The translations under genes and the position numbers were made by a program. Positions 37,200 to 64,000 of a stretch of 64,000 nucleotides of DNA are shown here, piece after piece (position 1 is the first letter of the stretch; each line of letters starts with the position of its first letter). Where the stretch lies: contig OZ024752.1 in assembly GCA_964016885.1 (NCBI GenBank), positions 8,928,001-8,992,000 of the forward strand, read 5' to 3'. This stretch comes from Eledone cirrhosa. Its lineage: Eukaryota. The notes beneath the pieces are model-generated. The model did no database searches. It saw nothing but the letters and a program-made list of their open reading frames with translations, and had not been told where the DNA came from.

Positions 37200-40100
37200 C
37201 TAGCGGAGCTACCCGGCTTCGCTCAGTGTTAAAAAGCTTATTTAGAAAAGAATAATATTAACATTTTAATCGTTATTTAAAAACTTCTGTAATTTAGTTT
37301 CTATTTTTTAGATTTTAACATTTATCTTTAAATGACTGAATGACTGACGAATTTAAAGAAAATTCGTTATAAGAACATTTAATTTGTTTTACTGAAGTGC
37401 TTTTGGATGCACAATGTTTTTTGTTTTTCCTTCTGGTGCGTACACGAATAAATCAGAAGGTTTACCGACGCGTGAGCAAGCCACATACAGCTGTCCATGT
37501 GAGAAGCATGGATTTTCTAAATTTAGTCCACACACTTGTAGCGATTGTCCTTGTGCTTTATTGATAGTCATTGCAAAGGCGAGTCGCACCGGAAACTGCA
37601 AACGTTTGAAATCGAATGGCGTATCTGTTGGAATTATTGGGATGCGTGGCAAGAGTACATCTTCTCCTTTAAATTTTCCATTTAAAATTGTAGCCTCGGT
37701 GATATTGTTCGTCTTTTTCACTGAAAGTCTGGTACCGTTGCAAAGTTGTGGTGGATTGATTTTTCGGAGAAGGATGATAGGCACGCCAATTTTCAATGTT
37801 AAAATGTGCGGTGGCATGCCTGGCAAATCAAGTGAATTCAAGAATTCAATTGGATAATTGATAATTTCGTCTTGATTCATTACAGTATCGATGGACTTAT
37901 ACGTTGTCTCTTCGCCTGGTATTTCGTTTTGAATGCTGAAATTAATGGCATTGACATCGGTGTTTTTGGCTGCTAATATAGCACGTACACTGAGCCACTG
38001 ATGATTTTTGTAATGCTGCGCAATATTTGGGAACACTTTGTGAATCAGTTCGTCTCTGGTTGCCGTGATTCTACAGAAGTTTGTTGGCAATGTGATACAT
38101 TTTGTGGAATCATCGATTACCATTTTCCCATTCCCAATATCCAGCAATTGTTTTGTGAAACGTTCAGCGGATGCGTCATTTTGTAGTTGTACACGCATAT
38201 TGTTTTTTAAAGTTAATTTCTGTACGTGTCGCCATAAAACTGATGATTTGAGACATGCATTAAGCTCATCAGCGGGTGTTGATCGCGGTATAACTGGTAG
38301 AGTTTGTCGAAAATCACCAGACAATAAAATGAGTGTGCCACCGAAGAGGTGTTCATTTCCTTTCAAATCTTTTAGCGTATTATTAAGCGCTTCCAATGAT
38401 TTTTTGTGCGCCATAGTACATTCGTCCCATATAATGATTTTACATGATTGGAGTACTTTACCTATACCAGAATGTTTGGTAATATTGCATGTTGATGTCT
38501 CAGCAATTTGCATATTCAATGGCAATTTCAGGGCTGAATGTGCTGTTCGGCCACCATCTAAAAGAGTTGCCGCAATTCCAGATGATGTGATTGCCAGTGC
38601 AATATTATTTTCTGATCGTATAGTTGCCAAAATAAGTGAAATGAGAAAAGTTTTGCCTGTACCACCTGGCGCATCTATAAAATACAATGTGCCGCTTTGA
38701 CTTATAATTGCCTGCATAATTTGGTCATATACTATGCGTTGTTCTGGTAGCAATTTGGGAAGATTCGTTTGAACAAATGTACCCAATTCGGCGACATCAA
38801 AGTTTGTTTCTCATTGCAAATCACGATCGAAAATGTCGTTTACAGATCGATTCGGCGCAGGCATTCCCAATTGTACCAATGTTTTGTTAGCGATTGCTAA
38901 ACATATGACCTCAATGGAAACCAATGCTTCATTATACACATTTTGTGTGAATTGAATATTCATATTTTGATTTGTTGCACGCAAACGATGTAGGATGTCT
39001 TCACTCATGTAGTCTTTATATTTTTCCCAAAGATCTTTTGGATTTGATGGGAAGCACGTTGTCAATATTATTGAGAATAATGTGCGTATTTGCTTTGGTC
39101 GAGCAGTATTCGATGCATCAGCGAGTGAAGTGTCCCGATGTCCATCATTTTCAAGAAGATTTAATTCTTGGCAAGCTTCACGATAAGTGGCACATACTTG
39201 ACCGTTTACTGTTCTCAATTCTTGGAATGATGTCGGTCCACGTATGTGTCCAGGTCAGGAAAATAAGGACAGACGAAATGAAGATATCAAATTACAGCAC
39301 TTAGTTAAGGGCTAGCTGAAAAAGTATTCCCTGTAATGGGAGTGGAAGGGAAGTAATGTGAAACAGACACTATACTAATTCTATTGAAATTATATTAAAT
39401 TAAAGAGAGAATTTACTAATTCTATTGAAATTATATTAAATTAAAGAGAGAATACTAATTCTATTGAAATTATCTTTAATTAAAAAAATTTCACACTCGC
39501 TCTTTCACTCACTCTTTGTCTATACGTTGATTTCTCTTTCTCTGTTTATAGCACTCACTCTTTGTCTATACGTTGCTCTTTCACTCACTCTTTGTCTATA
39601 CGTTGATTTCTCTTTCTCCGTTTATAGCACTCACTCTTTGTCTATACGTCGCTCTTTCACTCACTCTTTGTCTATACGTTGATTTCTCTTTCTCCGTTTA
39701 TAGCACTCACTCTTTGTCTATACGTTGCTCTTTCACTCTCTCTTTGTCTATACGTTGATTTCTCTTTCTCCGTTTATAGCACTCTCTCTTTGTCTATACG
39801 TTGCTCTTTCACTCTCTCTTTGTCTATACGTTGATTTCTCTTTCTCCGTTTATAACTTTAGAGACAGTCTAATATAGGGAGTGGTTCAAAGCAGCCAGAC
39901 TACTTGCTCTTTCACTCGTTGCTCTTTCACTCTCTCTTTGTCTATACGTTGATTTCTCTTTCTCCGTTTATAACTTTAGAGACAGTCTAATATAGGGAGT
40001 GGTTCAAAGCAGCCAGACTACTCGCTCTTTCACTCGTTGCTCTTTCACTCTCTCTTTGTCTATACGTTGATTTCTCTTTCTCCGTTTATAACTTTAGAGA

Positions 40101-41110: not shown

Positions 41111-41980
41111 GTAATGTAAAGTTGTATTTCTTTTTTGATTGTAAATATTATAGGTATGTTTCTAAACTGTGTTATGGCCATGTTCCAACGAGATATACCT
41201 TCAGGGAGGCCAGCTAAACCTACACAGGTGTTGGGGGAATGTGTTATGTAGGTTTCTTAACTGTGTTATAGCCATGTTGGGGGAATGTGTTATGTATGTT
41301 TCTTAACTGTGTTACAGCCATGTTGGGGGAATGTATTTCTATATTTGTCATTTTTAGTAATTTGTCAAAGAAAACAAACACTCATCTAGTTCAGTGCTCC
41401 CGCATTGTGAGGTTGAGTTAACAGAGTAATTGAGGTCCTTTCTACAGCGTAGGGTTAAGTCTTGAAAACAGAATAAGAGTCAATCACAGCAACTGGAGCA
41501 AATAGAATTGGGTTTTTTTCTTCTTTTTTTTGCTATGGGACACAATCTAATATCTATCTATGCCAGGCGTGGGGAATTTTTTTGGGACGTGGCTCATCAT
41601 AAGGTAGGCCACATAGTTTTTGAGAACAATACTGTAACATAGTATGAGTGGATTATGGCTGGTTTGAACAGAAAGAGATGGGAAAATTCTGGCCGGTTTA
41701 AATCCTAAATGGTAAAACTAGTGGAGTAGAGAGTGTAGCCTGACAAAATGTCCAACAGTATTCATTATACAAGTAAAATTCCGTTATAACGAATTTTTCG
41801 ATATAATGAAACTTTTTTCAATCCATGAGGTGATAACAAGCAAGCGCTTGATTTGTTTCAGCCAATCTCATAAAGAATTTTCATTATAATGGAATTTCAC
41901 TATATTCTAATTTCAAGTCCAGTTATTATTGGGCTTAATGAAATAGATCAAAATTATCATTGTTATTATTATCATTTCAG

Positions 41981-42801
41981 AGGGCAATGTAAGCAACCAA
42001 GGATATCGAAATGAACCAGAATTCAACCCACAGCAACATAACAGATGGCGCTTTAATACTAACACAGGTCCATTTCCTCCAAATGGACCGAGAAATCAAC
42101 CATTTGATGCTTCTAGCAATAGATTTCCTAATGCCTTTCATAACAGGCACCCAAATCCATCCAGCAATTGGCACCCAAATCCATCCAGCAATTGGCACCC
42201 AAATCCATCTAACAATTGGTCTACAAATCCGTCCAACAATTGGTCGACGAATCCATCTAACCAAAGGTCTCAAACTGAGAACAAGAACTGGATTCCAAAT
42301 CTTAATAAATGGCCACCAACAAATGACTCTAACAGAGGACCAACAAACAGCTTTAATAGTTGGTCTCAAAATGTTATTAACAGTTCAAGTATTCCTAATA
42401 ACTGGTCTGAAATCAGTTTAAACAGTTGGACCCAAAATAATCCTAACATTCCAACACAAAATACTGTTAATGTTCCACCCCAAAATAACCTTAATAGTTG
42501 GCCTTCAAATTGGCCAAACAACTGGCCCCCTGATATTAACAGCCCACCGCCAAACCTTTTTAGCATTCCTCCACCAAATGTTCCAAGTAGCTTCTCAAAT
42601 TCTACCAGCAACCCCTCTACAAGCCATCCAAACCACCCACCTCTACATGCTCAGAGCTGGACACAGAATCCACAATTATCTTCTCCTCCTCCGCAAACAC
42701 AAGGCTTCCCATCCAATAACAATCAGTGGCCACCTGAACATGTAAATAGTTCTTGGAACCAGCAGCCACATGGAAATTCCTACACATCAGAAAACTATTA
42801 A
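41981..42801 (+). CDS. NAF1: NAF1 exon 9, N/P/S/W-rich low-complexity C-terminus ending SYTSENY*
   Basis: TTTCAG acceptor; 821-nt open frame with no ATG, so missed by the ORF track; total CDS 2001 nt = 666 aa. Confidence 0.85.
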
Positions 42802-45151: not shown

Positions 45152-45812
45152 ATATAGTAAAAAATTGAACGGGAACAAAACAGAGAGGCTGTACGAACAA
45201 AGGTTTATTAGTTTCACGCTCTTGAGAGTGGGGTGGTGGTGGGGAACAGGAAAATCATAGACAAAAAATCATAGACAGAAATAAACAAGTACAGTAAATA
45301 AATCAAACAAAGGTAATGCAAAGAAAGGAAAAAACAAGTGTGGGAAGGTGTGTGGAAAGTTCAGAGAGTGGTCACGGCGGATTAGATCGGGGTTGAGCCT
45401 GTAGTCAAGGTATATTCCAAAGGTATGGAAGCCGTGGCAGCGTGTATTGTATAGTAAAAAATTGAACAGGAACAAAACAGAGGCAGTACGAACAAAGGTT
45501 TATTAGTTTCACGCTCTTGAGAGTGGGGTGGTGGTGGGGAACAGGAAAATCATAAACGTAAAAACACAGGCAATCGTGGACAAAAAATCATAGAGAAAAA
45601 TAAACAAGTACAGTAAATAAATCAAACAAAGGTAATGCAAAGAAAGGAAAAAACAAGTGTGGACAGTTCAGAGAGTGGTCATGGTGGATTAGATCGGGGT
45701 TGAGCCGGTAGTCAAGGTATATTCCTAAGGTATGGGAGCGTGTATTGTATAGTAAAAAAATTGAACGGGAACAAAACAGGCAGTACAAACGAAGGTTTAT
45801 TAGTTTCACGCT
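45152..45812. repeat. ~300-bp direct tandem repeat (about 2.2 copies)
   Basis: TATAGTAAAAAATTGAAC...GGTTTATTAGTTTCACGCTC recurs at ~45152, 45449 and 45748. Confidence 0.85.
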
Positions 45813-46513
45813 CACAGTCGTGGAAATTGTTTAATACCAAACATAATGTTTATGGTAAAAAACGCTTTCATTTCGGCAGAAACTGTTGGACGCCATAACA
45901 GATCAGATTTTCCTCGGTTAGAAATTTGTTGTTGTGCATAGCGATTTGTCTCTTCTGCCACAACTTCGAAGAAAGTTTGTGGTAAAAATAAAAAAAAATA
46001 ATCCAGTGCTTTAGCATCGGGTGGTAATGTGTGTTGTGGTCCAGTATTTTCATTAAAATCCGAAACATGTATCGATGTTGTTTCTTTCAACCACGTTAGT
46101 GTTTTTTCAATGGTGTCAGTTATCTCTTCGCTTTCACTTTCAAAGTGACTATCATCATCATCATCAGATATATCAGAAATAAATATATCTGATTCGTTTG
46201 AAGATAAATCACTGATATTATCTTCTGTTTCTTTTTTATCTTGAATGTCGTAGGATGTAAAACCTTCAAATTCGTTGTCGCTACTTTCGGAAGCCATGTT
46301 ACACTTTCAACGTTAAAAACACATGTTATCGCAAGTTCTTTAACTATACTAAGAGTTAATTTTCGTGCGTAAGGGCTTTATCTCGCAGTAAACTCGAATT
46401 GAGATTTTGATGATGTCAATGTTTATTTTTAGAAAGAGATCTCTGTGTAGTATTAAATGTCGGTTTGAATAAATGAAAGGGGACATAATCTTGTCGGTTT
46501 GAATGCTAAAGGG
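45812..46513 (-). mobile_element. piggyBac (PGBD4-like) left end with transposase N-terminal fragment (ORF 46297-45812)
   Basis: TTAA|CCCTTTAGCATTCAAACC TIR at 46513; acidic N-terminus, TGP...LDYFFLF...EETNRYA...W.P...EMKAF. Confidence 0.9.
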
Positions 46514-46517
46514 TTAA

Positions 46518-47135
46518 ACCAATCGATAACTTCACTAGTTCCTTTCCATAATTTTAAATAAGATAAATTAGATAAATTCTTAATTTGTGGTATTATTCTG
46601 TCCAGAATATTTTTGCTAAGTCTGCCAAGGTCCGATTTAGATGGTGCAATTAATCTGACTGGTAAATCGGTTTTGAAGTTCCTTTTATGATCCTTCATAT
46701 TAATCTTAGGTTTCCTTGGCATGAAGGGTTGTGTCCTATTTTCAATGCCTAGTTCATGCATTATATAAGAGGCATTTGTATTCAATTTTTCAAGGTCGTC
46801 TTTATTTGCTACTTTGTATTTCTTCCTTAATTCCTTTAAAATAAGGTCGTTATAAATGTCCTTTTGTATTCCGTAAAGATTATTAGTTTTGTCAGACTTG
46901 ACTAGAATTTTCTTCGTTTTCTCCAAGTTTTCAATATTATTTTTAAGTAATCCTGGCCTTTGAAGTTGTTTTTGAATTTGATGCTTTGGATGATAGATAT
47001 GATATCATTTTCAAAATCCATTAGTAGTTTGTTGTGGGGTGGATTTTTTTAGATTTGAAGATTTTATCCAGATTGGAAACATATTTTTTTTTTCTGTGTA
47101 GCTGTTGGGTTTACTATTTTAGTGGAGTTCAGCAA
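46518..47135 (-). mobile_element. Penelope-like element ORF fragment
   Basis: FKSKKNPP, KSDKTNNLY, MKDHKxNF, PVRLIAPSKSDLG. Confidence 0.85.
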
Positions 47136-47339
47136 TTTGTGTAGCAATAAGTTGTAATAGTGTATGAAAATATTTGTCACTACTTTTTTTATACACTGTT
47201 GAATGAATGAATTTGTTTTGCTGCATATTCAGAGGTCACCATTTTTAGTGAGCTAGTCCCAGGATCCCAGCTACTAAATTTAATCGAAATATGAGATAGG
47301 AGAATTTTCATACAATATCAGGCCGTGTGAGAATTATCT

Positions 47340-48690
47340 CTCACTACAAAGGTTTAGGCGGGGTGGTCAGGCATCCTGTCTAATTGGATATAATATACTG
47401 GCACATGGGCAAACAAGGAAGAAGGAACATACCTCAAAATTATGTTATGTGAACATTTTGTTCGAAAGTTCCCGCCGCTGTTGATTCTCTTACACACACG
47501 TAATTTAAACCAAATTCGTTACATTCTGCCAAGTGTGAATCTTCCATCCAACCTGTTCTCGTTATTGGTCTGGGTTTTCCTTGATCCAACCAGTATTTCC
47601 CGTGATCCAGTGTACTTCCCATGTATGGTACAGAGGATAAACTGATGCAACCATCCATTAAACATAAGCTCTGTTCCCCCTGGTGATGAGCGTTAGACCA
47701 TTTACCATTATTTAATATCGTTCCGTGTTGAATAGCTAAACCTCCCCATTCTGTACTCGTCAACGGTTTTCTTAACAGTGAATGGTTTGTCCACTCATGC
47801 ACAAATGTATCGCCCTGTCGTATTTCTTTTACGGTGTGAAGACCTCTCCAGTCGTGAAACGTCATGTTCATCTCGCACTTATTATCTATGAATGTTCCTC
47901 CATAGTCTTCTACTAGTTTTTTAGGCGCCATATAGAAATAAGCGTATTGTGGTAACAGTAACTCATCTATTTTTGTTGGACGTATTTTCTGAAAGCCGTC
48001 ATTTGGTATTTTATTGCTTCCTCTCGGGTTATTGTATCCTATATATTTTCCTGTCCACATAAATTTGAAAATAAGGAAGCGGGTTGTTGATAAATTGATC
48101 TTCTCCTCGTTGTACTATCCACTCTGAACACATAATGTTAGATATCTTGAAACCCGCCTTTTGGATTCTGTATTTTGTAGCCAATTTCATGTTTGTTTCC
48201 CATTCTATCGGCTTAACCCACGAGGTCAGGTAATAAGGTACCAAGTAATCTGCCGATACACATGTGCCTCTAGTCATGTGATTACTCAGCGAAGGCGGAG
48301 GATTAAGTTTGTCTTGAGTTTGAGTCAGTACTTCAAACGTACCTTTGGCCTCATTCATATTTGTACTTTTTACACAGTTCTGAAACTTCCGTGTAAATAC
48401 GACTGTTCTTCTGAATGGTCCAGTTGGCTCGGGTATGTTGACCACGTCACCGTGCGCTGTGCTACTCCATCCACCTCCTCCATCATTTCTTGCAGTTTCC
48501 TGCTGCCGTCAACATTATCAGACTGCAAAGGTCGAAAGTAGTTATCAAGCCCCAGGTAATGTTTCGCAGTGATTGCTGCTGATGCCAATATTCCGACTGG
48601 ACCTGATTGTATAGCTTCTCCGATGAATTTCTTATCTGCATCCCAAGTGTCGATATCTTTTTGTCCATACGCAATATTTTGTGTGGCAAA
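47340..48690 (-). pseudogene. Endogenous parvovirus/densovirus-like capsid (VP) gene remnant with a decayed PLA2-like VP1u
   Basis: Frameshift-linked ORFs: ATQNIAYGQKDIDTWDADKKFIGEAIQSGPVGILASAAITAKHYLG (resembles the vPLA2 HDxAY..AD..F region), RRTVVFTRKFQ, YLVPYYLTSWVKPIEW..YRIQKAGFKISNI, INNPLPYFQIYVD, EIRQGDTFVHEW; similarity judged by eye. Confidence 0.7.
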
Positions 48691-49549
48691 GTTTATAAGA
48701 TGTAGGCGTATAACACAAAATTACTGTAGTTGGTTGTCGAGAGTTTACAGACGTCAGATTCTTTGTATGAATGCCAAATAGCCATTTATTGGGTTATAGT
48801 CGGAACCCAGTCGTTCCTGAGGATTTGTCGTAGCTTCACGTGAAGACCTCGTGAAAAATTCCAGCATTTTGAGGACAGCAGATTATTTTGTGTATCTCGG
48901 TGGATACGAATCTGCTGAACGGATGTATGTTTATTACGGCTAGTTTGCGTGTCCACTCCATGAGGGAATTTAGCCGGATGGAAGGCTATGGAAAACAGCG
49001 GACTGACCCGTGTCTCTTGGTTGAGAGACATCGCTGAACTGAGGTTATCAGCCCAGAGTTATGATGTCATCGACCAACATCAGCTTGGTCGTGATTGGTC
49101 AGTTTGTCGGTAAGGTCAATCAGTGTGTAATCAGTAGCAATCAAATTCTCAGAATTAGAAAGCAGTGAGCCTTCTGAGAATTCAAATATGAATCTGAAAG
49201 TAATCAGCTTCTACGAATTCAAGTGAGAATTAGAAAGTAGTGTTTTTCCACGAATTCGAGTGGAGAATTTGTGTACGCTACAAAAGAATGCACACAGTTT
49301 ACAATGCTGTAACAAATGCATCACAAAACACATATATTTCTGGGTAGTGAAATCATAAATAAACTTACTTGATATGTAACACGTCTGTGTTCGTGGGAGG
49401 TATAGAATGAACTGAGCTGGGCACAATTGAAAGGCATGCGTGTGGGGCTTGAGTTGTCAGACATGTCAATGGAATTTGATTAAACCTCCTGCTTATACAA
49501 CAGATCTAAAAGTGCCGCCCCTATCGCCCCCCTCTAGCTACGCCACGGC

Positions 49550-50503
49550 CCAATGGTATGGTTAGGGAATTTCTCTTTAAGTGTGTGGAGGAGGAATAGG
49601 CCGACTAAATCACACACGTCAGCACTGTCAAAAGAACCCATTGAGACATCAAAGGGGTTCTCGGTTAGATTTTTTTTACCCAAATTTCATTATTAGCAAA
49701 GAGTAAAGTATTTCTAGCATGCAAAATGACATTCTCTTCAATATCGGAAATATTAATAAACTTTTTAGCGAAATTTAATGCTTTCCTTAACAGAGGGAGA
49801 GTAATAGACGGGTAGAAGTCTACAATGTCAAATTGGGTGAATCTAGAACTATTTTTAAGCCAATGTTCTACAGAAGAGCTATTTATCCATTGGAGTAATT
49901 CTGACTTACTTCTAATATGTTTGTTTATGTTATTTAATATCTTTTTGCTAGCAAGTCCGATTTCAGTCTTAGCAGGGTTGATTAATCTGCAACTGGGACG
50001 ATTATTAAAATTAGATTTGTGATCTTTAAGAGTGATATAGGCATTATGTTTTGCTAGTTTTTCTGTTCTATTGTCTATTTTTAATTTGCTAGCTAATTCT
50101 TTGGCTTCATTATTAATAGTATTATAGGTGTTAATATTAACTATTTCGTATTTAGAGGTGATGCTATCTGTTAAGAGTTGGTCATGTAAGTTATTATTAA
50201 CTTCGTATAAATTTTTAGTTTTATCAGAAAAGGAACTTATTTTTAGAAGATTTAAATTTAAAAATATCGTTAGATAGTTTAGATTGAAAAATGTTATAGT
50301 ACTTACGGAATTTGATTTGATTGATTAAATTAACTAAGTCTAGTTCAAAAGTGGTCATGTTTTTACCCTTTGTGGGTATTTGAGACTTGATATCAAAGTA
50401 TTCTGTAGAGTCCGTGATAAAGTGTCCATCGAAAATCAATGCGCTCCATCTCGTTCTTTTCACAACTTTTTCTACTTTATCAATCAACATTTTAGTGTAG
50501 GAA
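49550..50503 (-). mobile_element. Penelope-like element N-terminal/RT fragment
   Basis: KRTRWSA, TLKDHKSNF...RLINPAKTEIG, PFDVSMGSFDSADVCDLVGLFLL. Confidence 0.88.
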
Positions 50504-50605
50504 GTTTTAGGCGGGAAGTGGTCGTCAGTCATCCCGTCTAATTGGTTATGGTTTACTGGCACATTTCAAACAAGGAATAAAGACACCTCAATTTATGTTA
50601 CAAAA
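50504..50605 (-). pseudogene. Second, diverged copy of the 3' part of the putative capsid remnant
   Basis: Colinear with 47352-47448 (TTTAGGCGGG..CATCC.GTCTAATTGG..TACTGGCACAT..CAAACAAGGAA..ACCTCAA..TTATGTTA). Confidence 0.6.
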
Positions 50606-50949
50606 AAACATTCTTTATGTAGGAGCAATTACAAAATATATACGAATACATTAATGCTCCTAGGTTGGGAATATGTTTAAAATGTCAAATACTGCCACAT
50701 GGTGTTGGTGTCATCACTTGAGCCACTGTGTGATTATCGCACGTCTATTGTCTCCAAGCACTCATTGTCCAAGTGTTATTGTCTCAGCCACTGACGTCAG
50801 AACTAAGGGCAGTTAATCGACTGTGTAGGCAGTCGACGCTAGATGGCGTGATCTTCTACAAAGTGTTAGGTGTTGGTATGTTCTTGATGGAGTAATCCAA
50901 ATAATATCGATCCATATTAGGTATTGGTTAAAATTCATTTTAACTGAAG

Positions 50950-51910
50950 AGTGCTCGACTTTAAAGGGCTGGAAAGTGCCAATCTCAACTGAGGCCTGAC
51001 CCTATGTTGGTATGTCCGAGAGCCAAAGAACTTGTGAAGAGGATATTCAGTGGTTCCACTAAGTCATGTTTGCATGTTTTTAGGAGGACTGCTGGGAATC
51101 CAGCAGCTGAGTTTGTTCTAATCTCAGTTATGGCGGATATCACATCTTCCTCCATTTGTAGTTGATGGTCACCATTTCTTCATGGAGTGTTGTGCCTCAG
51201 TCGACGTGTGAACACACTTCTGTACTGTTCATTCAGTATTTCACTTATCCCTTGGGGATTCTCGGTTAATAAACGGTCTTCATGCAGTGTACCGAGGCAG
51301 TTTCTTTTGCAAATTTAAAGAAGGCGTTAGGGTTTGTTTTAATATTTTCTATGGCCCTGCTTTCTCTCTCTCCTTTTCATGGGAAAGTTTGAGTGCCTGT
51401 TTCAGATAGGGTTCCTTCTTGTTTTTCTGTTGTGCATTCAACTGATTTGAGAGTTTAGTTCTTTGTCTCTGGGAATAAAATTTTTATGTCCGTTGGCCGT
51501 TTTCTCTGGGACAAACCTATGGCATCCGGTTTGTATTGTTGTCATGAAAACTGAAAATGTGTGTTGGCGTCTTGTGTGGTGATGTTGTTGCTCCAGTTTT
51601 GCTTCCGGATCTCTTTTTGGATCTTTTTCCAGTTAGCCTTGTGAAAGTTTAGGCTGGATAAATTCCCGGTGATTCTTGATGGTTGTGTCTCTGTTGATTC
51701 TCTCGGACCACATATCATTAGTTCTACTAGGTTATGATCCGAGAAAATCGTTGGTATCACCTTTACATTGTGGATGAGCACTGCGTTGTTTGTAAAGCAG
51801 AGATCAAGGACATTCTCGCCTCTTGTTGGGAGAAGTACTGCTTGTTCCATGAACAGCCTGTGTGTGAGGGCCAGCAGGGACTCTGTCTGTCTCTGTTCTA
51901 GTGATGTCAT
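50950..51910 (-). mobile_element. CR1/L2-like LINE fragment (APE endonuclease C-terminus and linker)
   Basis: EQAVLLPTRGENVLDLCFTN, SDHNLV, NFHKANW, NIKTNPNAFF. Confidence 0.85.
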
Positions 51911-53910
51911 TCCAAGTGCCTACCTCCACCCCGAGGTATCGGAAGGTTCCAGAAGGATCTACTCGCGGCAGAGGCATCCCGTTGATCCCCGGGGGAGCCT
52001 CTCTGTTCACCATGAAGGTTCGGGCCCGTGAGTCCAACGAGAACGTCGTACGCTTTGACACGTTTACCGCCATACTGACCTAGGCACGAAATTCCCACGG
52101 CCTCGACTCAGACATGCGCTCCAAGAGCGGGTCGGTCGCTATGTTAAATAAAATCGGGGAAAGCGCATCACACTGTCTAACCCCTCTCAAAATCGGAATG
52201 GGACCACTCCGAGCGAATCTCGAATCTGGTCGTCGCCCCCGTGTATAGGTTGGCCACCAGCTAAATGATGTGGGCGCAAAACCCCTTCCGCCGCATTCCC
52301 GCGGCCACCAACTGATGGGGAACGTATCGAAGGTCTTTGCGAGATCCAAGAAGGCAAGATCTAGACGACGCAGTCGTCGGGCTCCCTTCCGACTCTGCGC
52401 ACGCCTTATCAACTCTGGAATCATGAAAACGTTATCGCCGCATCCGTCTGCCTTAATAAACCCGCGCTGTGCCTGGCTAAGCGGGGTCGCCTGCAGAATA
52501 CGTCCCGCCAGCACCTTCGTGTACAGGCGATAAATCGCAGAGCAAATCGTCAGTGGCCTCCAGTCAGACAGATAGAGCGGATTCCTCCTGCTCTTCGGGA
52601 GAAGAATCGATCTACCAACTTTAAGCCCGGTCAGCACCTGACCCGCCAAAAGGAAACAATTGAACAGATTCACGAAGACCGGGACCGGCTGCACGAACCG
52701 CCCTCGGGGAGACTCCGTCAGGACCGGCCACCGAGCCGGGCTTCAGCCCCCGGAGAGCTGCGGTGACCTCCGAGACCGTTAACGGGCGCAACAGCGTGGG
52801 GTTCACCTCGGCCAGCGGGACAGGGCAGACGCCGCCCGTGCCCTCGCCCAGTATGAGCCTCAGAGGTTTCTTTCGGTCAACCTCATATAGTCTCTGGTGC
52901 TGGGAAAACCTGGCGTAGACGCGCGTCGACCCCTCTCGCCGGCCTCCTGAGCTCCGACGGCACTTCCTCCCCCATGCTGGGGCTTGCGCCTCGTACCCGA
53001 ACGGGAAGAACGGAGGGAGTCTATCCAAGCTTCCCACGAGTCTCCGCCAGCCCTCGTCCGAAACCCCGTCGGCGAAGTCCAAGTCGCACTCCGCAAACTC
53101 CACCGACCATGCCGAACGACTGGGGACTGCGGTCCCACCAAAACTTCCCCTCCAGGCCGCATCTACGGGGACGGCCATTTGGGAGCGGGGGCCGGGACCA
53201 TCGGGCCACTCGACCTGCCTTTCGCTGTCAGGTCTCGCCTCTTGTCACTTATTTGTTTCCGAGTCTTGCTGGGGAGAAAGGACTCGAGGGCGACATTAAC
53301 GAACCGCACACCCTCTCGTACCAGCTGTTGCCCCTTCGTTTCAAGGATTTTAATCTCAACCAGCATCCGTTTCTCTTCCCACGTGGCTCGGGCCCAGCCC
53401 ACACCAGAGCACGTTTCTCTCTTTTTCTCTAGTTCTTTCGCATAACTGGCAATTCGTCTAGCGTTCGATTCATCGGGGTGTCGATACCGTATGTGCTGCG
53501 ACACCCCGGACACCGTGGCAAAGAATTTACCACAGAAGCCGTACCCTCAGCTCTTGCGGGGGCAGCGGTGGCAGGAACGAGAACAGATCCCTGCGTGAAC
53601 CCTGATCGAGTGGAGGGCCCCGGCTCCACCTGCGCAGAAACGGCATCTGAAAAACAAGCGGTCTTCGTGCCGATCGATCTGGTGTTGGCCAAAAGAGGCC
53701 GGCGTTGAAAAACTGCGGGGGCAAAAGCGGCAGTGCAACAACGGGACCCGTTTCAGAATGAGCGTGTCCGATTCGGCGTCTCCGGGGTGGGGTCCTCCGC
53801 CAGGTTCCGTAGTTGAGGGTGAAGCGGTTACCCGTTCTGCTACGAACTACGATAGTAGGTAAAGTTTCAAATCCGGTGGGGACGGCAATCTTACTGTGGT
53901 GCAGACCCCA
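51911..53910 (-). mobile_element. R2-like (RLE) non-LTR retrotransposon fragment: zinc fingers, Myb-like domain and RT; frameshifted and 3'-truncated
   Basis: CRFC..F....GQH...H, CRFC...H...C, CGKFF....VSQHIRYRHP, WEEKRML, WRPLTICSAIYRL, QRGF, LAFLDLAKTFD, GVRQCDALSPILFN, FRYLG; GC-rich. Confidence 0.88.
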
Positions 53911-53914
53911 GCCG

Positions 53915-55720
53915 ATGTCGATAAACCGCTGAAATGTTTGTGCAGCGTTGCGCAGACCGAACTGCATTCGCAGGAATTCAAATAAACCGAACGGTGTCGT
54001 GATTGCGGTCTTCGGAACATCAGCAGGCTCCATAGGTATCTGGTTATATGCTCGTATCAAATCTATCTTGGAAAAGATGCGTGCGCCTTGCAGAGAGGCA
54101 GAAAAGTCGTGCAAGTGAGGTACAGGGTAATCATCGGGTACTGTAGAATTGTTGAGTGCACGATAATCCTCACATGGGCGCCAATCATTCTCTGTTTTCT
54201 TAGGAACAAGGTGTAGTGGTGCAGACCAGTTGCTGGAGGAAGAGCGAATGATTCCAAGATGCAGCATGTGTTGAAACTCCTGTTTGGCGATTCTCAGTCG
54301 GTCTGGAGGCAGTCTCCTTGCTCGGGCAGCTGTGGATGGTCCTCTCGTCTCGATATGATGTGTGACACTATGTTTAATAGGTCCATCCATAAATACTGGG
54401 CGAGTGATGTCTGGGTATTTTTGGAGAATGCAGTTCTGACTGGCAAATTACAGGGCTTACTGTGGATTGCGTGGTAAATATACCTCTCACAGTGAGGTTT
54501 GTGGTGGCGTCAATAAGCCTCCAGTTCTTCATGTCCAACAGAAGGTTGAAGTGGTGGAGAAAATCGGCTCTTAAGATAGGGGTCGGCAGGTCTGCCACGA
54601 CGAACACCCATTGAAAACGACGTCTCAGGCCTAAATTGAGGGTCAGTGATTTCTCCCCGAAAGTCTGAATTGACGATCGGTTCACTGCCTGCAAAAAGGA
54701 CGGTGTTGGATGTCTTTTGCCCGAGACTAGTGAAACAGGAATAAAGCTAACCTGGGCTCCTGTATCCTCGAGGTAACGGATGCCTGTTGCTTGGTCGTTG
54801 ATAAAAAACAGACGACTTTTCTTCTAAGTCCCAGGGATGAACGTCTTCGCTAGGCCCTGGTCTGCCCAGTTCCCTGGGTGGTATTCTGGAAAGAGCACGG
54901 GGCCTTGCACTTAGATGCCTGTGCGCCGAATTCTACGTGATACCAGCAAAGGTTGCCAGACACGATTTTGACTGGGACTACTGGATCTTCGATGGAGAAA
55001 GGGTCTGGATCGACTGTTGCTGCGCCGCCGGTGTAATCGAAAGGTCAGGTTTTCTAATTGATTTGAGAGGGCTTTAATTTGACCAGCCTGCTCTCTGATC
55101 ATAGCCTGCAGCTCTGAAGTCTCGGAGGTGGAGTCTGAGGACGCTGCGTAAGGGTTCGTCTGATGATCAACTTGAGCCACTGAGGCAAAAGGGTTTGACA
55201 CCTGAGCGATATTATCCGCGAAAATCGCCAGTTCTTCTGGGGTTGCTGACTCGTTAGTCGACGCCAGAATGCCCTGCATTGATAGGGGCAAGCGCAGTAT
55301 AAACAGCCGTTTCAGCACATCTTCTGAAAGCGGTTGGTCTTCCATCAGCTGTCTCATCTTTTGCAATAGTTGGGATGGTTTTCTGTCCCCCAATTCTTCT
55401 GCAGACACGAGTTGGTTGAGTCGTCTCTGCTGTGACGCGGTCGTTCGTTTTATCAATTCCTTGCGGAATGATTCATATGACGCGGTGTCATGACGAGGTC
55501 CCTCACCTCAGCTAAAACTTCTGGCGGGACAGACCCAATGATGTGGGTGAGCTTTGCAGAATCGCTCTTAATTCTATTAGCGGCGAACCACAGGGTTGGG
55601 TAGTTGGACCAAAAAAAAACAGGGACCTTCAACGTTAAAGCTGCTTGCGGGGTTGGTATCTTGGCCTCTGTCGTTGGTTGTGACATGTTCATGTTGGTTT
55701 CTTGTTAGGCTACTGTCTGG
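53915..55720 (-). mobile_element. Ty3/Gypsy internal fragment (gag, protease, RT N-half)
   Basis: gag ELGDRKPSQLL; protease EDTGAQVS; [48 protein letters not shown]. Confidence 0.95.
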
Positions 55721-55750
55721 TTCGTGTTCGAATCACGTCGGGGGTCACCA
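55719..55750 (-). other. Gypsy primer-binding site, tRNA-Trp
   Basis: Minus strand ...CTACA-AT-TGGTGACCCCCGACGTGATTCGAACACG, complementary to the tRNA-Trp 3' end; LTR remnant follows at 55753+. Confidence 0.85.
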
Positions 55751-56079
55751 ATTGTAGTGGAAAAGTAATATTATGCCTACATGGCATAATATTAATAAGA
55801 ATGAATATGTTATTGTTGTTATTTGTTATAGTGAGAGAGAGAGGCCAAGTTAGCCATAAAGTGAATGCTTGTTGAAGTAGTTGTAGTTCATTGTAGGCTT
55901 TGTAGAAAATATGTAGTGCCATGTAGAATTGCCTGAATTTACAGTACACAGGTACACCATACTCGAATCTAGGCATCTATTTTGCATGGGCACTTATTCA
56001 GTTGGTTGTAGTTACATTTGGAGATTTTTTTGTGTACAACCACTCCGTTGCGGTTTTGCATGTTGTGGGTGGGTTGAGA

Positions 56080-56300
56080 TTTAGGACTATTAGTGTTTTG
56101 TTGTGATGCACCCTGATGTGTATGTTGTATTTAGTGCTATCTGAACGGGTCCAATACTCATTGTTGAAGTTAATAAGAGTTCTTCTAGCTGTTAATATGA
56201 TATCAATTTCATCTGTGGTTAGATCCGTATGCTTATAAGTCAAAAGGAAACGAATGATAGTGGATGAATGAACAATACATCGTTTCTCTTTGTAGAAATA
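56080..56300 (-). mobile_element. Penelope-like RT fragment
   Basis: IDIILTARRTLINFNNEYW. Confidence 0.65.
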
Positions 56301-56704
56301 AATGACTCCAGAAGGGGGTGAACAGTTAAAAATCAACGATCCTTTATTAAATGCGACATTTAATAAATTATGTACAATGTCAATTCAAACATACCTTGTG
56401 GGTTAATAGAAGTAGTGTAATTATATTCTCCGGTGCAGGAATAACGAAAGAATAAGCGAATGCATATTAGTCGAGATATCGTGGCGTCCTTGATCCGAAG
56501 GAGGGCATTTTCACATAGTCCCTCACGAAGCCAGCATGGTCAATATTTTGAGGAGCAAATCCTTTCACGTCTGTTCATGTCCGCGGTACATGAGAAAGAG
56601 AGAGCAAACCCGCGTCTGTGACCGGATGTATCTTGCCTCCGCTCTCTGAAGAGTTGTTAAGGGGAGGCAACTGCTAGTTGCTAAGCGACCATCTCAGTCA
56701 CTAC

Positions 56705-57800
56705 AAGTCTATCATAGAACCTTATTTAGTAGGTTGGGTGTTATGGAAGAATAGTAGTTTATGTCCATCTGGATGAATTTATGGTTTTTCTTATCATCTA
56801 TATTCTTGTACCATTCTATGACTTCACTATGTATCTTTACACAAGCTCAAACTAGATCTCAATTTAAGAGCAGGTAGGATTCTATCGATGATGTTTTTAC
56901 TGATTACTCCAATATCCGATTTGGATGGAGCAATCAATCTAACTGGCATATCTTCCTCAAAGTTTCTTTTGTGATCCTTTAAGTTAATCCGCGGCGGCCT
57001 AGATATAAATGGCTCGGTTCTTCCTTCTATTCCTAAATTGGTAATTAATTTATAGGCATCCTCGTTAATTTCTGAAGATCTTCAGCCAGGGCTTTTTTAT
57101 AATTTTTCCTAAGTTCCTTTAAAATCAAGTTGTTATATTCATCTTTGTTTATCCCATATAAATTATTTGTTTTGTCGGATTTAACCAATATTTTGTTAAC
57201 TATTTTTATTTCCGTGATTTTTTCTTTTAGAGTTCTAAGGTATTGGTGACCTGTATATGGGTTTTTCCTAAATTTAATTTTTTTAAGCACACCGAGCATT
57301 TCAGTTTCAAAATCCTCCAGGAGTTGTATGGAGGATTCTTTCTTGATTTAAATAAAGATTCAAAATTATTGCTGTTGGTTTTCCTTTCAGCATCTTTATT
57401 TTCGAAATGAAATGCTCGCCATCTCATTCTTCTAATAAAAGAGTTTGTTTGTTCAATAGTTTTCCTCATGTATTCCTCATTTGAAGGTATTGGTACATCC
57501 TTGAGGGATGTCGGGAAGTTAAAGAAATCCATGTTTATTGAATATGCAATCTATTGTATAAAAAAGCGCTCAACCAATTGGGAGCAATATATATTAAAGA
57601 GTTAAACAAGATTCAATGAGTACATCAAAGAATGTGTTTTACAGTAGATTGGAAGCACTCTACAGTAAAAAATAATTTCCAGAGTTATTAATATTAAAAT
57701 ACAAATATTAATAAAATAGATGTTCTTGTGATCAATTAAATTTTATTATACACATTTCAGAGGTACAACAGTATGTCCTCATCAGATAAAATAAAATGAT
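56705..57800 (-). mobile_element. Penelope-like element 5' part (ATG at 57532) with an upstream hammerhead-bearing pLTR-like region
   Basis: SLKDVPIPS, FIRRMRWRA, KSDKTNNLY, LKDHK, FIQMDI..YYSSI; minus-strand TTTTAT-CTGATGA...GAAA-TGTG-TA-TAATAAAA at 57740-57797. Confidence 0.85.
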
Positions 57801-57844
57801 ACATGACATACCCTGAGATGTTAAATGGTTAAGATTTAATCAAG

Positions 57845-58025
57845 GTAGTGATTAATTTCCTAGATGTTACGTTTAACTTAAACTCTGGCTTTTATTACTC
57901 TTTTCATAAGCCCAATGAAAACTTAAACTATGTTAGTTACTGCTCCAATCACTCTAAATCTGTAAAAAAAGCTATAGTAAATAGTGTGCAAAAACGCATT
58001 AGTAGAATATCAGCCAATAAAGCAA
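57845..58025 (+). mobile_element. Penelope-like RT thumb fragment (inverted relative to neighbours)
   Basis: INFLDVTFNL...HKPN..LNYV...SNH...KRISRIS. Confidence 0.8.
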
Positions 58026-58086
58026 TATATATATATATACATTATATAAAGAATGAGGAATCAGTAATGCATCAAACCACAATTTA

Positions 58087-58380
58087 TTAACATATTACAT
58101 ATGTTTCTCCAGGAATCTTCTCCGCCAGTCGTTGGAAGAGGAAAATTCCCAGCAGATCCGTTGCTTGGGTGGAGTCGCTTGACTCCATCGTTATGTCAAA
58201 GCTATCGGGTCTATCGCCGTACCGTATTAATATCTTTCTCGCTGCTACAATATTGTCTACTTCTCTTCGTGTGAGGTGAGATTTGCCCATAGCGTTCATG
58301 AGGCCTTATTAACAATTACTGGGGATATGGGCGGTAATAATCCGCTATGTCCAACTGTAGGAATTTCACTTGATGTTTGT
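58087..58380 (-). mobile_element. Penelope-like RT fragment
   Basis: DSFDITMESSDSTQATDLLGIFL. Confidence 0.7.
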
Positions 58381-58449
58381 TACCTAATAGCGAGAACCAG
58401 TCTATCACTTCCATGGTGGAGCTCCATAAGCTAAGATAAAAAGAAACAC

Positions 58450-59335
58450 TCACAGCCCCAATAATATTTCAACAGAACCTGCTAGCGCTACTTCCTCCAC
58501 AAACCCGACACCCCCGGCTGCCACATCATTTCTGCCTGCAACTACCTTACCGAACTAATCTCTGCCTTCCTTGACTCTATCCTTGCCCCCCCCCCCTCTC
58601 ACTGCCCTCCCCTCCCGGATTTTCAACACCAACCCCACCTTTCACCTTTTTGACTTCCTCACCTTCCCACCTTGCCCAACGCCTCCTTTACACTTTAGAC
58701 ATTAAATCCCTCTATACGCCCCCCCCCCCCCCCCCCCCACTACTGTGACCTTCATCCCTCCACCCCCCCACTGAGCTGGTCTTCACCCATAGCTGCTTCT
58801 CCCCTCTCGGGTGAATTTTACCAGCGCGTCACCGGAGTGGCCATGGGCACAAGAATGGGCCCCAGCTTTTTCGTTGGCCACATTAAGGGCCAGATCTTTG
58901 TCCAATACACTGATCCCACCCGTGAACTATACGGTCGTTATATTGACGATTGTATTGGGGCCACCCAGGGGCAGCTTGACTCCTCTTTTTCTTCTGTTCC
59001 TTCCACCACCTCTGTCCAGTTCTTGTGGACATCATTGACCCCCTCCCACTGACCCCTCATCACCTCTGCAGGCCACTGACTCCCACTCTACCTCCTCCCA
59101 CTCCACTCACACCAGACATTCCATACCCTACTCCCAACTTCTCCGGATCCGCCGCCTTTGCAGCGGAGATTAGGATTTCGAGACCCAATGTCTTTCTCTG
59201 GTCTGTCATTTCACTTGGAGGGGTTAACTCCTCCCTTGTCCACCACACCACCACCCTCGCTCTCCTCCGCCACTGTCTCCCCCCTACCCCTCTACCGAAA
59301 CATCCTGCGTCTCTTCTGAAACCTCCAGCCTGACT
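58450..59335 (+). mobile_element. Decayed Penelope/Poseidon-type RT fragment
   Basis: TLDIKSLYT, YQRVTGVAMGTRMGPS, YGRYIDDC. Confidence 0.8.
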
Positions 59336-59514
59336 TATCCCCCCCCACCCCATAAGGCGCCTTATGGTGGGGTAGGTAGTGTTTATACCCTGGTCATTGG
59401 TAGTCAGTTGTTATAAATATATGAGAATAGAATAGAATACAAGTAGGGATCACTCACCTTTATTTTCTTCTCTATTCTTTAACAGTGATTTAATACTTAC
59501 TTCAATGGTGTCAT

Positions 59515-59697
59515 GGCCGACATCACAAGTGGACAGAATCACTGGCAGTGACAAGATGGCGTCTAATTATTTATATATATATATATCTACTATTAAACCC
59601 GAAACTATAAATCAATAGTTATATATTAGTTCTTGTAATCATCCGCCATCTTGTCACTGCCATCGGTTTTATACACTGTTGTCTCTTATCTGTCGGT
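59515..59697. mobile_element. Small MITE / inverted repeat
   Basis: Perfect arms TGGCAGTGACAAGATGGCG / CGCCATCTTGTCACTGCCA. Confidence 0.75.
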
Positions 59698-59759
59698 AAT
59701 CTAAAAATAAGTTAACAAGACGTATTTGAAATTTATGACACGTTTATTCAGATTAAATA

Positions 59760-60270
59760 CATAAATGTAAATCTCGGCCATGTTCGGTACAGAATTGCAT
59801 GTCTTTATCGAGGTCATAACAGCATTTGAAGTCGCTCTAGTTTGGTACGTGTTCCTTTTTTTCGAATGGGTCATCAGTATCGTAATCGTCTCTTAGTTCG
59901 TGGCAGTTGCCATCGAAGATTTCTTTCATTTCTTCTTCTGTATATGAGTTTGCTGGTGCAGCTTTCTTTTTATTTGGTGATTCTGTTTTGTCTATGTTGT
60001 TATTTCGTCTCTTTAGGGTTGTGTTCAAATCAATGTTGTTTTCGTTGTAATGTTGCTGGTAAGTTTAGTGGACATGTACGTATTGTTTTGGAAATCCTTA
60101 ATGTATTCCTGCCATATTACAAGCCACATTAGGGATTGAGTTCTTTCTGTCCCCATTTTTTTAATTGTGGCATCGAACGGGCTGTGTTGTACAAAAACAT
60201 TCGAGCTCTGAGGGCAGTTTCGTCCTGCATTACTCTATCCCATGGTTCGCTATTTCCAGTACTATTAAAG
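59760..60270 (-). pseudogene. Endogenous parvovirus/densovirus-like NS1 C-terminal remnant (end of the SF3 helicase)
   Basis: With two frameshifts reads LIV-TGNSEPWDRVMQDETALRARMFLYNTARSMPQLKKWGQKELNP-MWLVIWQEYI, resembling SF3 motif C, the Arg finger and the LxPxxW tail of densovirus NS1; by eye. Confidence 0.65.
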
Positions 60271-60399
60271 CAGAAAACTGTTTAAAACTATTGCATTATT
60301 TTAGTTCTTTTTTATTTTATATTTTGGAAATGTACACACGGTTTTTTTTTTTTTTTTTTCAATTTTTTCGGGGGCCCTAAGCTATAGCTTGTTTAGCTT

Positions 60400-60798: not shown

Positions 60799-62244
60799 GG
60801 TAGGTCTTCTTGTCTGGGATGGGAATGGACTTAAGTGAGATCCTGCAGTAAGTACTTCCAAAGCAGGAAAGTAAACGTCGTGCATGCTCTCATAGGCATG
60901 GATATTCAACAGCATTTGACCAGATTTCTATGGGATCCTTTTTAGCCTCAAAAAGGGATTTGAAGATACTATCTTCCCCCAACTCAAATAACTCGACTTG
61001 TAGTTCCGTAGGACCCTCGGATATATCTACTAAATGTGGTTCAAATACCAGTTTCATAGCAGGTGTGTATTTGTCAAAATCTGAAAATCTTTCAGTATAT
61101 TCTTCTATTAAAGAATCCAAGACACCTACATATCCATCAAATATTTTATTTTCACATTTCTGCTCATTCAACATTTTTGCTAGCTCCAGGAAGTGTTCTG
61201 CAGATATATCCGAGCGAGAGAGTAATGTTTTGAAAAATGTTAATTTTTTTTTTTGAAACGCTTGGATCTTTTGCCACATTTCATATATATGCTTTGTTTT
61301 ACCTTGCAAGCAAATATTTAAATTATTTTGTTTTGTCATGATATCAGACAAAAATGCAATGTTTCTGCAAAATGCTTCATCTGATAGATCACAAAGTTTT
61401 CCTTGTTCGTGATAAAAGTTTAAAATTTGTCGTCGTAAAGTTAAAACTTTTATCAAAACCTCTCCTGTTGATAGCCAGCGAACCTTGCAGTAGATCAACA
61501 CTGTATGTTTCCTCGTCTAAAGTTAGCATCTGCCTAAATTCACGATGATGCATTGCATTAACGCAAATATGGTTGACAATCGCAATTGCTCTATCCAGAG
61601 CGTCTTGCAAAATGCAGTGAAATGATATAAATTTTTTCAAGTTTAAGTTTTCCTATTTTAATAAAGCAATGAATCCTTTCATAGAGGGTGCGCCATCGGT
61701 GCAGACACTGACTAAATTACTGACATTTAATTGTAATCGATGACATACCTCTCTGAAGTTTTCGAAAATGTCAACTCCGCGAGTTCTTCCAGTTAGCATA
61801 CCCAGCGCAAGAAGTTCTTCGTAACACTGAACATCTTTAGTTACAGCACGAATAAAATATAAAACTTGCGACAAGTCAGTTTTATCAGTGCTTTCATCCA
61901 AAGCAATTGAAAAATAAACAATCTTCATTTTGTATTATTGTACAAAGTTGCTCTGTTACATTTTGAGCTAATTCGTGCTGTCGATCTGTTATAGTTCTTC
62001 TTGAAAGAGGCAATTGTTTGTATTTATCAACTTTTTCTGGATCTAACATACCCACTGCTTCAACAATACATTCTTTAATTATTTCTACGTCACTAAATGG
62101 TTTGCCTCTTTTTCCAAGTATATGTGCTATTTTGTAAGTAACATCAACGGCAGTGGATTATTCTTCACAAAAGGACTAAAAGACGTCTGTTGATAATGCC
62201 TTTCATTTTTCAATTTTTGAAGTGCAGCTTGTCGAGATTCACCT
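60799..62244 (-). mobile_element. hAT (Buster/SPIN/GTF2IRD2-like) transposase fragment, copy 1, no TIRs
   Basis: GKPFSD.E..K, LSRRTI, FSIALDESTD, VCTDGAPSM, FHCI, CKVRWLS; disrupted. Confidence 0.93.
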
Positions 62245-62869: not shown

Positions 62870-64000
62870 GGTAGGTCTTCTTGTCTGGGATGGGAATGGA
62901 CTTAAGTGAGATCCTGCAGTAAGTACTTCCAAAGCAGGAAAGTAAACGTCGTGCATGCTCTCATAGGCATGGATATTCAACAGCATTTGACCAGATTTCT
63001 ATGGGATCCTTTTTAGCCTCAAAAAGGGATTTGAAGATACTATCTTCCCCCAACTCAAATAACTCGACTTGTAGTTCCGTAGGACCCTCGGATATATCTA
63101 CTAAATGTGGTTCAAATACCAGTTTCATAGCAGGTGTGTATTTGTCAAAATCTGAAAATCTTTCAGTATATTCTTCTATTAAAGAATCCAAGACACCTAC
63201 ATATCCATCAAATATTTTATTTTCACATTTCTGCTCATTCAACATTTTTGCTAGCTCCAGGAAGTGTTCTGCAGATATATCCGAGCGAGAGAGTAATGTT
63301 TTGAAAAATGTTAATTTTTTTTTTTGAAACGCTTGGATCTTTTGCCACATTTCATATATATGCTTTGTTTTACCTTGCAAGCAAATATTTAAATTATTTT
63401 GTTTTGTCATGATATCAGACAAAAATGCAATGTTTCTGCAAAATGCTTCATCTGATAGATCACAAAGTTTTCCTTGTTCGTGATAAAAGTTTAAAATTTG
63501 TCGTCGTAAAGTTAAAACTTTTATCAAAACCTCTCCTGTTGATAGCCAGCGAACCTTGCAGTAGATCAACACTGTATGTTTCCTCGTCTAAAGTTAGCAT
63601 CTGCCTAAATTCACGATGATGCATTGCATTAACGCAAATATGGTTGACAATCGCAATTGCTCTATCCAGAGCGTCTTGCAAAATGCAGTGAAATGATATA
63701 AATTTTTTCAAGTTTAAGTTTTCATAAAGCAATGAATCCTTTCATAGAGGGTGCGCCATCGGTGCAGACACTGACTAAATTACTGACATTTAATTGTAAT
63801 CGATGACATACCTCTCTGAAGTTTTCGAAAATGTCAACTCCGCGAGTTCTTCCAGTTAGCATACCCAGCGCAAGAAGTTCTTCGTAACACTGAACATCTT
63901 TAGTTACAGCACGAATAAAATATAAAACTTGCGACAAGTCAGTTTTATCAGTGCTTTCATCCAAAGCAATTGAAAAATAAACAATCTTCATTTTGTATTA
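62870..64000 (-). mobile_element. hAT transposase fragment, copy 2 (near-identical to copy 1, runs off the right edge)
   Basis: Same 203-aa ORF; differs by a ~9-bp indel near 63723 versus 61652. Confidence 0.93.

Follow-up and report, generated by a model that had tools for sequence, protein, structure and literature searches.

Decayed parvovirus NS1 and capsid pieces on one strand of a transposon-rich locus in Eledone cirrhosa

How do remains of two parvovirus genes come to lie about 11 kb apart on the same strand of a cephalopod genome, by one event or by two? This question is raised by a stretch of 64,000 nucleotides from Eledone cirrhosa (NCBI GenBank assembly GCA_964016885.1, contig OZ024752.1, positions 8,928,001 to 8,992,000 of the forward strand; hereafter the window), which is animal DNA dense in transposon debris. 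An initial annotation, made from the sequence alone, had described a densovirus-type NS1 helicase remnant, separate from a capsid piece about 11 kb away and in the same orientation, and had taken the shared orientation as a sign of independent capture. The arrangement itself was confirmed, with both pieces on the minus strand.

Layout and decay of the NS1 remnant

The coding part of the NS1 remnant has the following features:
near 60290, minus strand: 5' end of the NS1 remnant, broken off
60132..60290, minus strand: conserved part, with the beta strand and Asn of SF3 motif C, the Arg finger and the post-helicase P-x-LK...NP segment
60066..60131, minus strand: continuation of NS1 in another frame (MWLxxWxxY segment), matching the following Euprymna segment at 5/10 positions by eye
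59753..60065, minus strand: probable NS1 C-terminal tail, with a basic cluster, an acidic stretch, a Cys/His cluster, an internal stop and a terminal stop

The NS1 peptide was confirmed at 60260-60132 on the minus strand. It occupies the C-terminal 43 residues of a stop-to-stop frame of 50 codons (60129-60281, minus) that has no ATG start. The coding remnant runs from about 60290 down to a stop at 59753-59755 and is spread over four frames, with an in-frame internal stop at 59837-59839. The frame changes lie near 60262, near 60131 and somewhere within 60065-60030; of these, just the one near 60131 is pinned down by alignments that reach it from either side. Short-read contigs from two runs of one sample, which may be the source of the assembly itself, span 59135-60292 with 0 gaps at a depth of 7-13, indicating that the frame breaks are present in the reads too. 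This remnant is unable to make a working protein.

Walker A, B and B' and the HUH nuclease domain of NS1 were found nowhere in the window, and all of them are present in the metagenome relatives introduced below. Their absence probably reflects truncation, since such parts would sit upstream of the 5' break. Judged by its sequence, the NS piece is the decayed last third of a parvovirus NS1. The term NS1 helicase remnant therefore holds as far as NS1 is concerned, but of the helicase only the end is present.

Evidence that the peptide derives from NS1

To compare the remnant with known proteins, a profile was built from the NS1 ends of 17 Densovirinae proteins, drawn from 17 of 18 genomes and fetched by the Walker A motif only. 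When this Densovirinae-only profile was anchored at the codon after the Arg finger, the score at the remnant was equalled or bettered at 5 of 127,600 window positions (p = 4e-5). By this anchored test, the conserved segment after the Arg finger is present in the remnant. Translated ESTs of the squid Euprymna scolopes are identical to the NS1 peptide at 24 of 43 residues without a gap (counted by eye), and these fragments run on into the MWL..W segment found in the window's next frame.

A nine-residue pattern taken from the peptide gave one IMG/VR match, motif C of Porcine parvovirus 7 (PPV7) NS1. A variant of the pattern matched seven metagenome contigs; three of them (L021, L023 and L024) carry Parvo_NS1 and the other four are chance matches. 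Since PPV7 and the three contigs were chosen by a pattern from the remnant, they are circular as support. The anchored Densovirinae test and the Euprymna match escape this circularity. The alignment of the relatives' NS1 maps onto AAV Rep40 (E = 1e-20) with the Asn and the Arg in register. These two residues are known as the sensor and the Arg finger, and the initial annotation was right to see motif C and the Arg finger here.

General searches were less informative. Pfam returned no family for 5/5 NS pieces at E<=0.5, nor for 3/3 at E<=10; the NS piece covers the end of the PF01057 model only, and matches to this model in the relatives stop at position 208-234 of 271. The Densovirinae HMM and tblastn, run across the window, found nothing at the NS1 remnant. 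With single Densovirinae queries, 1-45 of 214 background bins scored at or above the remnant, and six densovirus queries stop at 60094-60100, inside the continuation segment. The unanchored Densovirinae profile was not significant at the remnant (E = 7.4). There was no match in the word-index search, among PDB sequences, in IMG/VR by peptide or in prokaryote genomes, and no accepted match in the ESM Atlas (best 0.80, a lead only). Two structure predictions were of low confidence (mean pLDDT 30.5 and 43.0). In length and make-up the probable tail resembles the tails of L021, L023, L024 and Euprymna, and its alignment was not significant (best rank 2 of about 214 bins).

A chance peptide in decayed DNA, and not NS1, might explain why the NS piece itself lacks a Pfam, PDB, word-index or Atlas match, and why unanchored scores drop to background and lose significance once the nine pattern columns are masked. 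It does not explain the anchored profile result or the ungapped squid match, which was found later and independently. We regard a chance origin as hardly credible, and the squid match refutes it for practical purposes.

Affinities of the NS1 remnant

Over the 43 residues, Densovirinae NS1 proteins share 8-11 identities with the peptide (n = 17), as against 17-20 for two unclassified metagenome NS1 proteins; L021 alone shares 14/43 and L023 20/43. In a tree of 22 rows and 43 residues, built without Parvovirinae, with L023 and L024 pattern-selected and with low power, the remnant joins L023 and L024 (support 99.6/100) outside the 17 Densovirinae, and hence does not group within that subfamily. 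The label densovirus-type was therefore right about NS1 but imprecise, given 8-11/43 for Densovirinae against 24/43 for the squid fragments. On the best reading of these sequences, the remnant comes from a cephalopod-associated, unclassified parvovirus outside the sampled Densovirinae.

The NS1 proteins of Densovirinae (17 genomes, within L001-L018) and of PPV7 (L019) have motif C, the Arg finger and P-x-LK...P in register with the remnant. Identity to the window's peptide is 8-12/43, their capsids are not alignable to the window's VP core, and their genomes are NS-first or ambisense. The three metagenome relatives end their Parvo_NS1 with TxNxxPW...ALxxRM...LK...P, as the remnant does. They also have an acidic NS1 tail, like the window, and related capsids. 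In contrast to the window, their frames are intact, and identity is only 14-20/43. The L021 and L023 capsids have no Pfam PLA2 match, whereas the window's VP carries PLA2. L023 and L024 have in common a small frame after NS1, which is lacking in the window.

The capsid piece

The capsid piece and its upstream stretch were delimited as follows:
47450..48850, minus strand: capsid remnant in three aligned frames, made up of a degenerate PLA2 region and roughly three quarters of a VP of the 608-aa type
48850..49500, minus strand: low-copy non-coding stretch upstream of VP, with local hairpins and 37-nt repeats (z = -4.3 for 49080-49270)

The capsid alignment extends over 48681-47458 on the minus strand, about 11 kb from the NS1 piece and on the same strand, and residues 46-467 of the 608-aa PLA2-VP are present in the window. 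The 3' end of the remnant is cut by a Penelope-like piece. At E<=0.001, 19 proteins match, the top one being Octopus vulgaris CAI9735766.1 (E = 8e-29). This protein (P0001) and the Logan protein P0002 represent the PLA2-bearing capsid family of the window's VP, at about 40% identity.

The VP family matches AAV-type VP1 via PLA2. Compared with the L021 and L023 capsids as a pair, it gave a probability of 94.6 (E = 7e-8), and the comparison with each of them alone was weak (E 0.03-0.08). With a VP-core HMM, the L021 and L023 capsids were not separable from noise (E 0.46 and 1.9). None of nine densovirus/PPV7 capsid sets aligned with the family (E>=0.13). With the PLA2 region left out, all eight densovirus sets had E>=0.13, so that no homology to Densovirinae capsids was detected in them. 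The VP pieces were unmatched in the word-index search, IMG/VR, PDB and prokaryote genomes.

Contigs of the same two runs cover 47410-49222 with 0 gaps at depth 7-13. Since this depth resembles that of neighbouring unique DNA, both viral pieces, whose copy number was judged from the read contigs, are single-copy. Contigs also bridge the host junctions at 59345 and 47447 with 0 gaps. Both pieces are thus joined to host DNA and have broken frames, indicating that they are endogenous. Frame breaks number 4 in 0.54 kb for NS and 3 in 1.34 kb for VP, a difference that is not significant (p = 0.11).

The non-coding stretch upstream of VP is a candidate left end and promoter, possibly of viral origin. 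The roughly 650 bases upstream of the capsid gene contain no NS1. RAD reads of another sample, which are reduced-representation data, start at 49438 in this stretch, and none fall on the NS piece. A faint likeness to the NS1 end at 49408-49335 was dismissed: it had been chosen after looking, 8 of 1094 background stretches were as good, and whole-flank alignments were at background. Another faint, colinear likeness, between 49082-49061 and the bases just past the NS hairpin, is not significant.

The 3' flank of the NS1 remnant

Three features follow the NS1 stop:
59743..59748, minus strand: AATAAA directly after the stop, with no poly(A) run after it
59507..59741, no strand: imperfect palindrome with 19-bp perfect arms (59543-59561 and 59644-59662) and an AT-rich loop
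59345..59506, no strand: single-copy 135-nt stretch with a TATA-like box and a perfect 28-bp palindrome; the junction at 59345 is bridged by contigs of X1 and X3

The imperfect palindrome, which the initial annotation had missed, folds with z = -6.2 and -8.0 in separate computations. It lies inside an unbroken single-copy contig, so it does not belong to a common MITE. The window has about six more inverted repeats of at least 17 bp that are not microsatellites, so that the chance of finding one within 250 nt of the stop is roughly 3%. By itself, the position of the palindrome is modest evidence of a viral origin. Parvovirus genomes have hairpins at their ends (PMC13426907). The palindrome is a candidate right-end hairpin or origin and probably marks a viral genome end.

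The perfect 28-bp palindrome (59345-59372) sits exactly where the viral 3' flank meets a plus-strand Penelope-like fragment and might be a fold-back scar. Rfam gave no match in 44-64 kb. A 15-mer common to the NS 3' flank and 47187-47201 was dismissed, as its second copy is part of a multi-copy element.

Gene order in the metagenome relatives

NS followed by VP is the usual order in monosense parvoviruses. The capsid gene lies upstream of NS1 in both relatives that have upstream sequence (L021 and L023; L024 starts inside NS1), an arrangement that the initial annotation had also missed, and no capsid gene lies downstream of NS1 in any of the three. In L021, the capsid gene (PDB VP2 match, E = 0.0034) ends where NS1 starts, and a hairpin with 29-bp arms lies 280 nt past the NS1 stop. 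In both L021 (401-3947) and L023 (357-3546) the capsid gene immediately precedes NS2/NS1 and shares its strand, opposite to the usual monosense order. A capsid-first parvovirus order was not found in the open-access literature by exact phrase and may be in print elsewhere.

The three contigs have no terminal repeat that would show circularity, and none of their accessory frames match the flanks in the window. In L023 (4213-4673 and 3832-4210), the viral part starts immediately after (CCCTAA)n repeats and a GDSL-like frame, which suggests that this contig, too, derives from a eukaryotic genome with a viral insertion.

The interval between the viral pieces and its strand bias

The space between the two viral pieces is filled by transposon fragments:
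49560..59344, mostly minus strand: truncated transposon pieces, mostly 5' parts (Penelope-like, LTR gag-protease-RT, zinc-finger non-LTR RT, LINE endonuclease)

The label Penelope-like is our assignment from motifs we presume to be typical, without a Pfam match. No whole nested element with target-site duplications was found in the 11-kb interval; a simple nested insertion is therefore not demonstrated. In 45.8-64 kb, 12 of 14 transposon pieces are on the minus strand (p = 0.013), or 11 of 13 (p = 0.022) when one split element is merged. This tally was made by hand with a boundary set after looking, the pieces are not independent, and their labels come from Pfam for five and from mutual similarity or characteristic motifs for the rest. 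At 8.5-45 kb, where pieces are few, neither strand is visibly favoured.

The interval and the strand bias fit a piRNA-cluster-like trap. If the locus has any function, it may lie in an antisense precursor of small RNAs, transcribed from the plus strand. Trapping of this kind has been proposed for shrimp IHHNV elements (PMC9357335, PMC12287923).

On the minus strand at 45800-58400, unrelated transposons succeed one another, each of them cut and most represented by their 5' parts. One of them, the zinc-finger non-LTR piece (51887-53950), has a single copy in the reads.

Origin of the two pieces

The reading that we prefer, with a rough probability of 0.42, is a dead endogenous parvoviral element that goes back to one head-to-tail or circular junction of a capsid-first virus and was later split. 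The NS piece would be the right end of the virus, comprising the last third of NS1, the poly(A) signal and a terminal palindrome. The capsid piece would be the left end of the same kind of virus, with the capsid gene ahead of NS on one strand. Viral DNA would have entered the germ line as a junction with the order NS end, hairpin, left end and VP. The site would have been a region that traps transposons; further fragments would have accumulated at the junction later, and deletions would have taken away both outer parts. Since the sequence runs past AATAAA into the hairpin, viral DNA was most likely captured and not a polyadenylated mRNA. There is no overlap between the pieces, which face each other with their natural ends and point outward with their broken ones. 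They look like facing right and left ends, because the relatives are capsid-first and L021 has a hairpin after NS1. If the virus was indeed capsid-first, the order of the pieces excludes a simple linear monomer and fits either two captures or a junction of the head-to-tail or circular type. One cephalopod-associated lineage is suggested for both pieces, as the nearest NS sequences are squid fragments and the nearest VP is from Octopus vulgaris. We infer that the palindrome and the stretch upstream of VP are viral, that the virus was capsid-first and that both pieces stem from one event. Within the window, flank comparisons reveal no sequence linking the NS flank with the VP flank, and no read contig spans both pieces. 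It also counts against a junction that L021 and L023 are distant and pattern-selected. We are more doubtful about a fuller version, in which the locus preserves a junction from a cephalopod parvovirus lineage with the capsid first, NS last and a hairpin after NS1, possibly replicated through or packaged as a circle whose only origin lay between the end of NS and the start of the capsid gene, and in which L021 and L023 belong to the same unclassified group.

Independent capture is a close rival and a real, if tentative, possibility: two insertions of one lineage into a strand-biased trap, for example a piRNA cluster of the uni-strand type, with the minus-strand orientation retained in both cases. 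The initial annotation had favoured it on the grounds of the shared orientation. This argument fails, because one same-sense virus also puts both genes on one strand, and orientation cannot decide between one event and two. What keeps independent capture alive is that the 11 kb hold truncated fragments of unrelated elements in a chain and no whole nested element. The minus-strand excess among the transposon pieces speaks for it too, as does a shrimp precedent of scrambled parvovirus fragments in piRNA-like clusters (PMC9357335). It demands, however, two events from a rare lineage within 11 kb that left complementary, terminus-bearing pieces facing each other, and the few pieces at 8.5-45 kb show no such bias. 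An ordinary monosense genome, integrated whole and split between its genes, would need no unusual intermediate, and the minus-strand order of NS then VP is the usual one. We nevertheless consider it unlikely. The palindrome would have to be internal or non-viral, which means that the genes were separated by about 1 kb of non-coding DNA holding a strong palindrome, or that two extra non-viral single-copy inserts are present, and the relatives with the nearest fetchable NS1 carry no capsid after NS1. Least expected among these origins is a bipartite parvovirus, of which one segment with NS alone and a hairpin at its end was captured next to another with VP alone; we hold this to be highly improbable. 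The poly(A) signal and palindrome immediately after the NS1 stop and the absence of NS1 upstream of VP would suit it, and AdSDV offers a precedent (PMC10267136). But L021 and L023 hold both genes on one contig, and the contigs of P0002 and P0014 (4470 and 4581 nt) have room for both. The surviving NS right side and VP left side share only 9-mers; they are not corresponding ends, so that terminal identity of the AdSDV type is not comparable here.

Relation to known cephalopod and shrimp sequences

Parvovirus-related sequences from cephalopods were reported in 2016. That paper (Francois et al. 2016, PMC5013282) lists the Euprymna scolopes ESTs DW283133, DW277466 and DW277051, Sepia officinalis FO193416 and the Octopus vulgaris VP transcript JR446908, and describes the mollusc sequences as nearer to vertebrate parvoviruses and outside known genera. 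As given there, they are short transcripts without genome context. In contrast, the copy in the window is genomic and broken, with a palindrome in its 3' flank and a capsid piece nearby. The Euprymna NS1 ESTs cover the same NS1 segment as the window, at the 24/43 identity given above, and continue into the MWL..W segment. The locus is thus a new genomic member of an already published kind of cephalopod parvovirus fragment, and mostly an ordinary viral fossil. Octopus parvovirus elements, and mollusc piRNA clusters with parvovirus elements, were not found in the open-access literature by exact phrase.

The IHHNV clusters of Penaeus monodon (PMC9357335) also consist of separate parvovirus fragments in repeat-rich DNA and are a proposed source of antisense small RNA. 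Those elements are up to 99% like the living virus and run in mixed directions, whereas the window has two decayed pieces, on one strand, of an unclassified virus.

A dead NS1 fragment alone is of small importance, since cephalopod parvovirus pieces were already reported in 2016. The locus joins loose cephalopod NS and capsid fragments in one genomic place and adds a probable genome end. The capsid-first layout of L021 and L023, which the two pieces of the window fit, is the more interesting by-product. If it holds for the cephalopod lineage, it would mark out a group of genus rank whose genome plan is unusual. Viral capture by a piRNA-type locus of a mollusc would then also have a testable example here, if this is what the locus is.

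Other features of the window

A plus-strand frame of 284 codons (41947-42801), with N/P/S/W-rich repeats, has no Pfam match. At 37389-39254 on the minus strand, a PIF1 helicase frame of 473 aa (E = 2e-63), probably of a Helitron, is almost intact. Two copies of a transposase piece, presumably hAT-like (60799-61937 and 62870-64000), are 99.3% identical and interleaved with a Penelope-like element, pointing to a recent duplication or an assembly repeat. Satellite DNA with repeat units of 31 nt and 61 nt forms two long arrays, at 1-2831 and 3828-8562.
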